From Escherichia coli (GTDB lineage: Bacteria > Pseudomonadota > Gammaproteobacteria > Enterobacterales > Enterobacteriaceae), in assembly GCF_003334355.1 (NCBI RefSeq), contig NZ_QOWP01000002.1: a stretch of DNA of 64,000 nt. One strand, 5' to 3'. Positions 26,316-27,752 of the stretch are shown here, one piece after another. The notes under the pieces are model-generated. The model made no database searches, was not told the origin of the DNA, and saw only the letters and a program-made list of their open reading frames with translations. The translations under genes and the position numbers were made by a program. Within the stretch, counting starts at the first letter, position 1; the number at the start of each line of letters is the position of its first letter.

Positions 26316-27752
26316 TCAGCGTTTGTAACCCCCGCCCAACGCACCAGTGAGTTGAATGGAAGCATCCAGCCACTGCCCTTGCAATAACAGGCCATTGGCC
26401 CGCTCACGCAGCGCGGGGATTCTGGCTTCGCTGACGCGGGAACCAGCAATGATGCCCGCGTTAAAGCGCGCCTGCGCAAGACCTACCACACGCAAGGCAT
26501 CGCGCTCAATTTGCGCCTGATGCTGGTTTTTCTCCGCAAGTGTCTGAACCTGACTGGCTGCCCGCGCCACGTCATTCACCGCTTCAACCACCGCTTTGTT
26601 GTAGCTGGCGATAGACAAGTTGCTTTCGGCTTTTGCGATATCGAGATTGGCGTTAAGACGACCACTATCGAAAATGGGTAGCGTCAGGCCTGCCGTAACG
26701 CCCATTTGCTGCGCGGAATGACGGAACAGATCGCTTAAGTGCAACGCATCCTGTTGCAGGAAGGCCATCAGGTTGATGTCAGGATAAAATGCCGCTTTTG
26801 CCGCATCAATGGTGCTTAGCGATGACTCAACGTACCAGTGCGCCGCCTGCAAATCTGCCCGCCGGGCCAGTAAGGAGTACCCCAGTTCATCAGGAAGCTG
26901 GCTTGCCACTTTCGGCAACGCGACCGGTTTAAGCTTCAATGACTTTGTCTGGTTATTTGTAAGTGCGCTTAACCGTGCCTCAATAATTTTCATTTTCCCC
27001 GCGACATCGTTGAGCTGCTGCCGGGTTTTGCTGGCATTAATATCGGTTTCCACACCTTCAACTGAAGAAGTAATCCCGTTCTGATATAGCTGGCGATCGG
27101 TCGCGATAATGGTGTTCTGCTCTTTTTCTATTTGCTGCAAGACCGTGTTTAACGCCGCCTGGGTTTGCCACTCCCAGTACAGGCGGGCTACGCTGCCAGC
27201 CAGCAATTGGCGGGTTTGCTCGCGTTCCGCCGCCCGTGCTTTAACCGTACCCAGGCGGGCAGTAACCTCCGCCCGATTCTTTCCCCAGATATCGAGATGC
27301 CAGCCCGCCGTTAAGCCAAAAGTACCGTTGGTGTACCACGGGCCGGTCGTACCTGCGGCCGGATCGTTCAGAGCAAACGGCCCCATTAAGCCTTCTGCCG
27401 ACATTTTTTGCCGCTCCATATCCGCCGAAAAGTCGATCTGCGGACCATCCTGAGTGGCAACTGCCTTCGCCTGGGCTTCAGCTAGCTGAATGCGCTGTTC
27501 AGCCACCTGCATATCCGGTGCGTTCTGTAGTGCATTGTTAATTAATGAAGTGAGTTGATTATCGTGATACTCCAGCCACCATTGGCTGTCTGGCCAACCA
27601 TTTTTCAGCGCCGTGGGTAATGCGGTGTCAACTTGTGCAGCGGGCGTTTGCTGGCTTAACGCCTGGCGGGTTTCATGCATAGGCGCACACCCGGCCAGCA
27701 TCAGTAACAGCGGAAAACAGGCGATGGCTGGATAAAAGGAATCACGATTCAT
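26316..27752 (-). CDS. mdtQ: MdtQ (YohG), outer-membrane efflux lipoprotein of the NodT/OMF family; intact 478-codon frame here
   Basis: Uninterrupted ORF with lipoprotein signal LLMLAGC. Start trimmed to MNRDSFYPAIACF. Confidence 0.8.
   Translation of the reverse strand: MNRDSFYPAIACFPLLLMLAGCAPMHETRQALSQQTPAAQVDTALPTALKNGWPDSQWWLEYHDNQLTSLINNALQNAPDMQVAEQRIQLAEAQAKAVATQDGPQIDFSADMERQKMSAEGLMGPFALNDPAAGTTGPWYTNGTFGLTAGWHLDIWGKNRAEVTARLGTVKARAAEREQTRQLLAGSVARLYWEWQTQAALNTVLQQIEKEQNTIIATDRQLYQNGITSSVEGVETDINASKTRQQLNDVAGKMKIIEARLSALTNNQTKSLKLKPVALPKVASQLPDELGYSLLARRADLQAAHWYVESSLSTIDAAKAAFYPDINLMAFLQQDALHLSDLFRHSAQQMGVTAGLTLPIFDSGRLNANLDIAKAESNLSIASYNKAVVEAVNDVARAASQVQTLAEKNQHQAQIERDALRVVGLAQARFNAGIIAGSRVSEARIPALRERANGLLLQGQWLDASIQLTGALGGGYKR

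Follow-up and report, generated by a model that had tools for sequence, protein, structure and literature searches.

Intact mdtQ (yohG) in a natural Escherichia coli strain and its loss through a single-base deletion in K-12

The window analyzed here, a stretch of 64,000 nucleotides of Escherichia coli DNA, carries the mdtQ (yohG) gene on its minus strand, where the open reading frame runs from an ATG at 27752 to a TGA at 26316-26318 and comprises 478 codons (Table 1). The gene order yohF-mdtQ-yohP-dusC is common to the window, MG1655, PSS-12, BL21(DE3), and Salmonella. The mechanical open reading frame is longer, opening at an upstream TTG (27842) and giving 508 aa; we place the start at 27752, because this ATG yields a lipoprotein signal and is the start that RefSeq annotates on the identical DNA of PSS-12. 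The protein begins with MNRDSFYPAIACFPLLLMLAGC. Its signal peptide comprises an n-region with Arg3, followed by a hydrophobic core and then the lipobox L19-A20-G21-C22 (MNRDSFYPAIACFPLLLM-LAGC), a pattern read from the translation. The residue at position +2 after Cys22 is alanine, and the protein therefore lacks the Asp inner-membrane retention signal. The original prediction had described a continuous 478-codon frame at 26316-27752 with a lipoprotein signal LLMLAGC and had named the gene mdtQ. Its coordinates were exact and the strand, which it did not give, is minus; the lipobox was found at residues 19 to 22, and the gene name is supported by the MdtQ equivalog NF008524 together with K-12-like synteny.

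Table 1. Features of the mdtQ locus in window coordinates
Feature	Coordinates	Strand	Evidence or remark
yohF (SDR oxidoreductase)	25502..26263	-	52 nt downstream of mdtQ; own GGAG ribosome-binding site
mdtQ (yohG) CDS, intact, 478 codons + TGA stop	26316..27752	-	NF008524; identical PSS-12 DNA is annotated as MdtQ WP_001078139.1
OEP repeat 2 (PF02321), residues 293-473	26334..26876	-	i-Evalue 9.8e-13
OEP repeat 1 (PF02321), residues 69-266	26955..27548	-	i-Evalue 2.2e-17
A5 run (TTTTT on + strand), codons K50-N51	27601..27605	-	alignment; A4 in K-12
Lipoprotein signal peptide, codons 1-22	27687..27752	-	read from translation
mdtQ-yohP divergent intergenic region	27753..27975		no Shine-Dalgarno sequence or consensus sigma-70 promoter
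yohP (27-aa small membrane protein)	27976..28059	+	divergent neighbor of mdtQ

The family assignment of the product was consistent at every level examined. The NCBIfam equivalog NF008524 matched residues 1-478 over profile positions 1-478 with a score of 1024.4 bits (cut-off 650), and the NodT outer-membrane-factor subfamily model TIGR01845 matched residues 16-475 (profile positions 4-460 of 460) with a score of 274 bits (cut-off 210.05). Two OEP repeats (PF02321) were found in tandem by Pfam, an arrangement typical of a TolC-family protomer. The solved structure nearest by sequence was VceC (PDB 1yc9; E=1.1e-39 over MdtQ residues 51-477), followed by OprM, CmeC, SilC, CusC, OprN, MtrE, and OprJ as further solved homologues. 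Judged by these sequence matches, MdtQ is a predicted TolC-like outer-membrane-factor lipoprotein of the NodT subfamily, a relative of TolC, OprM, VceC, and CusC. Its fold can be taken as settled by the similarity to a solved channel (E=1e-39), together with an AlphaFold comparison already published.

In MG1655, mdtQ (b2139) is annotated as a 1436-bp pseudogene, and the W3110 gene is likewise a 1436-bp pseudogene whose record describes a frameshift. Global alignment of the window gene with this K-12 locus gave 99.7% identity and five differences, only one of which is inactivating. K-12 has lost one A from a run of five (gene positions 148-152, codons K50-N51, window 27601-27605), after which its frame stops at 69 codons and the remaining protein continues in another frame. 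The other four differences, at window 27546, 26538, 26361, and 26328, are third-position and synonymous; restoring the missing A in K-12 would therefore yield a protein identical to that of the window. Whereas the window encodes the full-length protein, the A4 allele of K-12 could produce at most a short fragment bearing the signal peptide. The mdtQ alleles of MG1655, W3110, TUM1509, and EK2009 are identical to one another, and the A5-run deletion is the single gap in the window-MG1655 alignment over 18651-49493 (30.8 kb). It had been predicted that mdtQ is a pseudogene in MG1655 and intact here, which was confirmed by both the MG1655 annotation and the alignment: the K-12 allele is not an identical, intact copy but a frameshifted one, and the lesion is the 1-bp deletion in the A5 run.

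Homopolymer runs are classic sites of sequencing error, and the lesion sits in one; we therefore considered whether the difference could be an artifact of sequencing or assembly, on the side of the window or of the K-12 reference. The distribution of the two alleles argues against it. The mdtQ locus was present in 5424 of 5426 complete E. coli genomes. An 81-mer of the window centered on the A5 run was found exactly in 3055 of the 5426, including BL21(DE3), O157:H7, O104:H4, and NCTC86, and the corresponding K-12 A4 80-mer in 355; both counts cover exact matches, and approximately 2000 further genomes carry SNPs within the 81-mer. The 355 are independent assemblies that include MG1655, W3110, DH5alpha, C600, DH1, and J53, and a run of five A residues is short for errors of this kind. 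The allele counts effectively refute the error explanation, to which we assign a negligible probability. Among the A4 carriers, all 60 of the 60 matches listed were K-12-derived laboratory strains, with HB101/RR1, NCM3722, and AG100 among them. The K-12 pseudogene is thus one lineage-specific 1-bp deletion, and K-12 is the exception for mdtQ because one base was lost.

One genome had appeared to be a natural carrier of the A4 allele. EK2009 (host recorded as 'chicken'; 4.605 Mb) was rejected as such, since its 1850-bp mdtQ locus is 100% identical to K-12, frameshift included. Its yohF protein accession is also that of K-12. Given that the locus matches K-12 base for base, EK2009 is probably a K-12 derivative.

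The window itself comes from a different background. It is collinear with the yehI-setB region of MG1655 at a divergence of 0.6-1.4%, with 196 mismatches over the 30.8 kb of 18651-49493 and approximately 1.4% divergence further left. The nearest strain was PSS-12 (human feces, Ecuador), which is 100% identical to the window over 15000-39000 (24 kb) and differs at 13 positions over 3000-51001. These comparisons uphold the suggestion of a non-MG1655 background, and the window is, by sequence comparison, assigned to a natural, non-K-12 E. coli close to PSS-12; the intact mdtQ likewise confirms that the window is not K-12. The MG1655 alignment was broken at window 18622-18651, in the osmF-bglX intergenic region, where a short indel or a repeat difference separates two megablast segments. 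A second window gene, yehQ (8048-10051, plus strand, 667 codons), is also intact here but damaged in K-12, where the MG1655 copy stops prematurely at codon 615 and lacks 3 bp at window 9752-9754. PSS-12 yehQ has a stop at codon 58, position 8219 being T in PSS-12 and C in the window.

The intact allele extends well beyond the window. The DNA of mdtQ in PSS-12 and A23 is identical to that of the window, and the annotations of these two strains and of BL21(DE3) share one protein, WP_001078139.1, with no difference from the window's MdtQ and in the same yohF-mdtQ-yohP-dusC position in all three. When 11 diverse genomes were inspected, a sample partly picked for anomalies and thus not an unbiased estimate of frequency, 9 had an intact 478-aa mdtQ, 1 had an altered 3' end, and 1 had a nonsense codon. 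The altered 3' end was found in E. coli 2017.11.01CC (locus 249-1709), in which a 1-bp insertion near the end of the gene replaces the last residues and gives a product of 486 aa. This allele also carries A20T in the lipobox (LTGC) and is annotated as intact despite its altered C-terminus. The nonsense codon was Q30* in LY180 (locus 249-1685); its 81-mer had an exact match in just 11 complete genomes, every one from the E. coli W lineage (LY180, W, and KO11FL among them). Among laboratory lineages, K-12 and W have thus lost mdtQ through different mutations, and B, represented by BL21(DE3), is intact. We conclude that intact mdtQ is the ancestral state and the majority state among the genomes examined.

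Two further observations concern the flanks of the gene in other strains. The hit list had suggested an IS1 element inside the mdtQ gene of A23; this was rejected, as the element lies upstream of an intact gene. In A23 (capybara; locus 188-885) and in JMF1, an IS1A is inserted in the yohP-mdtQ intergenic region; its transposase CDS ends approximately 140 bp short of mdtQ, which is intact and otherwise identical, and the insertion could alter mdtQ expression, up or down. In the canine uropathogenic strain UPEC957C, the annotation marks yohF (locus 1738-1849) as a pseudogene interrupted by an internal stop, and mdtQ is intact.

An open frame by itself leaves room for a gene that is intact but cryptic, effectively unexpressed and heading to decay, in which a disabling mutation is merely absent so far. 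The expression signals at the locus are compatible with this reading. No Shine-Dalgarno sequence precedes the mdtQ ATG (..CCTGATTATTCCCCC-ATG), and a promoter/terminator consensus scan found no consensus sigma-70 promoter for mdtQ in 27753..27975. The one minus-strand promoter-like site lies approximately 300 nt upstream of mdtQ, inside yohP antisense, and the counts of such sites were not above those in shuffles. According to a recent review, the mdtQ promoter is without experimental confirmation (PMC11762307). Independent inactivations in K-12, the W lineage, and Salmonella enterica serovar Typhi, the altered C-terminus in one strain, and the slight phenotypes reported for knockouts point in the same direction. 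The pattern of variation argues against it. Pairwise dN/dS values of nine intact alleles against the window allele ranged from 0.03 to 0.15 (mean dN/mean dS = 0.08), and the polymorphic sites among these alleles were distributed 18/8/61 over the three codon positions, so that 61 of 87 fell at the third. Other Enterobacteriaceae also have full-length orthologues of 478 to 479 aa, with identities of 94% in Escherichia albertii, 82% in Salmonella, and 80-82% in Citrobacter, and these lie in a shared neighborhood, dusC-(yohP)-mdtQ-(yohF)-yohD-yohC-pbpG-dld-bglX. Neutral drift would not be expected to leave such a pattern, nor a locus retained in all but two of the complete genomes, and we consider a silent gene on its way to decay very unlikely. 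The dN/dS of approximately 0.08 and the full-length syntenic orthologues instead show that mdtQ is a protein-coding gene under long-term purifying selection. This strong selection, with the full-length orthologues in other genera, indirectly supports the suggestion of the original prediction that the window gene is potentially functional.

Whether mdtQ could share a transcript with its downstream neighbor was also considered. The consensus scan found no terminator-like site in the 52-nt gap between mdtQ and yohF, so cotranscription of the two genes is possible; the linkage is not obligatory, given that Citrobacter lacks yohF beside mdtQ. No RNA families were found by Rfam scan in window 24000-30000. 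On the other side of the gene, the yohP-dusC stretch at approximately 28100-28400 is GC-rich and repeat-like and contains a spurious 86-aa open reading frame at 28130-28390, and a repeat search of the mdtQ-dusC intergenic sequence returned one weak 19-nt direct repeat at 28182-28241. A TRIP1c repeat that mediates rare chromosomal rearrangements has been placed 363 bp upstream of yohG and 43 bp downstream of yohI (dusC) (PMC10888264), and from this published position the stretch is probably TRIP1c.

The membership of MdtQ in a well-studied channel family allows a mechanism to be proposed by analogy with the NodT, OprM, and VceC-type outer-membrane factors. After cleavage by signal peptidase II, the protein would be acylated at Cys22 and sorted to the outer membrane via the Lol pathway, where it would form a trimer with a beta-barrel pore and a periplasmic alpha-helical tunnel. 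It may then dock to the periplasmic adaptor of an inner-membrane transporter, with one or more such pairs encoded elsewhere, and its contribution beside TolC may be minor or conditional. The search for linked partners was negative: no adaptor or pump genes were found within approximately 6 kb of mdtQ in Salmonella or Citrobacter, and none are annotated in 48 kb of PSS-12 around the gene. The neighbors of mdtQ are envelope and metabolic genes, not pump genes. Unlinked partners do not disqualify MdtQ as a channel, given that tolC is likewise unlinked from its pumps, and we infer that MdtQ is an orphan outer-membrane efflux duct.

Comparison with known systems places MdtQ closest to MdtP. MdtP (YjcP, of the MdtNOP system) is the closest E. 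coli paralogue and, like MdtQ, is a NodT-type lipoprotein outer-membrane factor of similar length; the MdtP model NF007390 scores MdtQ at 356 bits, below its cut-off of 597. The mdtP gene lies in an operon with the adaptor MdtN and the inner-membrane transporter MdtO, whereas mdtQ is encoded alone. Known pump partners and substrates set VceC of Vibrio cholerae, OprM, CusC, and TolC apart from MdtQ. TolC also differs from MdtQ in not being a lipoprotein, and the two share approximately 12% sequence identity (PMC11762307). An EmrA-like adaptor would be the best candidate partner because the closest relatives, MdtP and VceC, use such adaptors, though this is only a guess.

A working channel need not serve drugs. 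The exported substrate could instead be a metabolite, siderophore, peptide, or toxin, or MdtQ might stand in for TolC under certain conditions, in which case the 'multidrug resistance' name would be a historical label. The slight reported drug phenotypes and the placement of the gene among envelope and metabolic genes fit a role other than multidrug efflux. Nothing in the present evidence discriminates among substrates, however, and family membership establishes a channel role only; we see the non-drug role as a possibility to be kept in mind, on balance unlikely but not far-fetched. Taken as a whole, an ancestral intact mdtQ, a K-12 pseudogene made by one deletion, and a product that would act as an outer-membrane exit duct very probably form the best explanation of the locus.

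These results can be set against published work. According to a 2025 TolC review, E. coli has three additional homologues of TolC, MdtQ being one of them, and mdtQ is core-conserved although annotated as a pseudogene (PMC11762307). The paper on YohP refers to its neighbor as 'the mdtQ pseudogene'. Null mutants have been described as slightly hypersusceptible to puromycin, acriflavine, and tetraphenylarsonium (cited in PMC11762307). The frameshift bears directly on how these phenotypes are read. The original yohG knockout study, by Sulavik et al. in 2001, was reportedly carried out in the K-12 strain W3110. Given that mdtQ is already frameshifted in W3110, the published null phenotypes would be weak evidence for function, and if they came from frameshifted K-12, functional studies have probably yet to address the intact protein.

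The gene is also dispensable and has been lost repeatedly: K-12 carries the frameshift, the W lineage has the Q30* codon, and in S. Typhi and Paratyphi A the gene was truncated independently (PMC9241588). We considered that these losses, together with the IS1 insertions immediately before mdtQ in A23 and JMF1, could be adaptive as opposed to neutral decay; a surface-exposed channel is a possible driver, either as a phage or bacteriocin receptor or as a cost in culture. We regard adaptive loss as improbable. The recurrence of independent mdtQ loss in the K-12, W, and Typhi lineages is nevertheless a mildly interesting thread.

In summary, the intact mdtQ of the window is an ordinary and already known finding: the contrast with K-12 has been published and the protein is in RefSeq, and the finding carries little news because the intact state is common in E. 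coli and already described. Its practical consequence concerns the choice of reference. K-12 is a poor reference for mdtQ, since in BL21(DE3) and most other E. coli examined the gene is intact, conserved, and under purifying selection, and functional work on MdtQ as a fourth TolC-family channel calls for a strain with an intact allele or for a repaired K-12.
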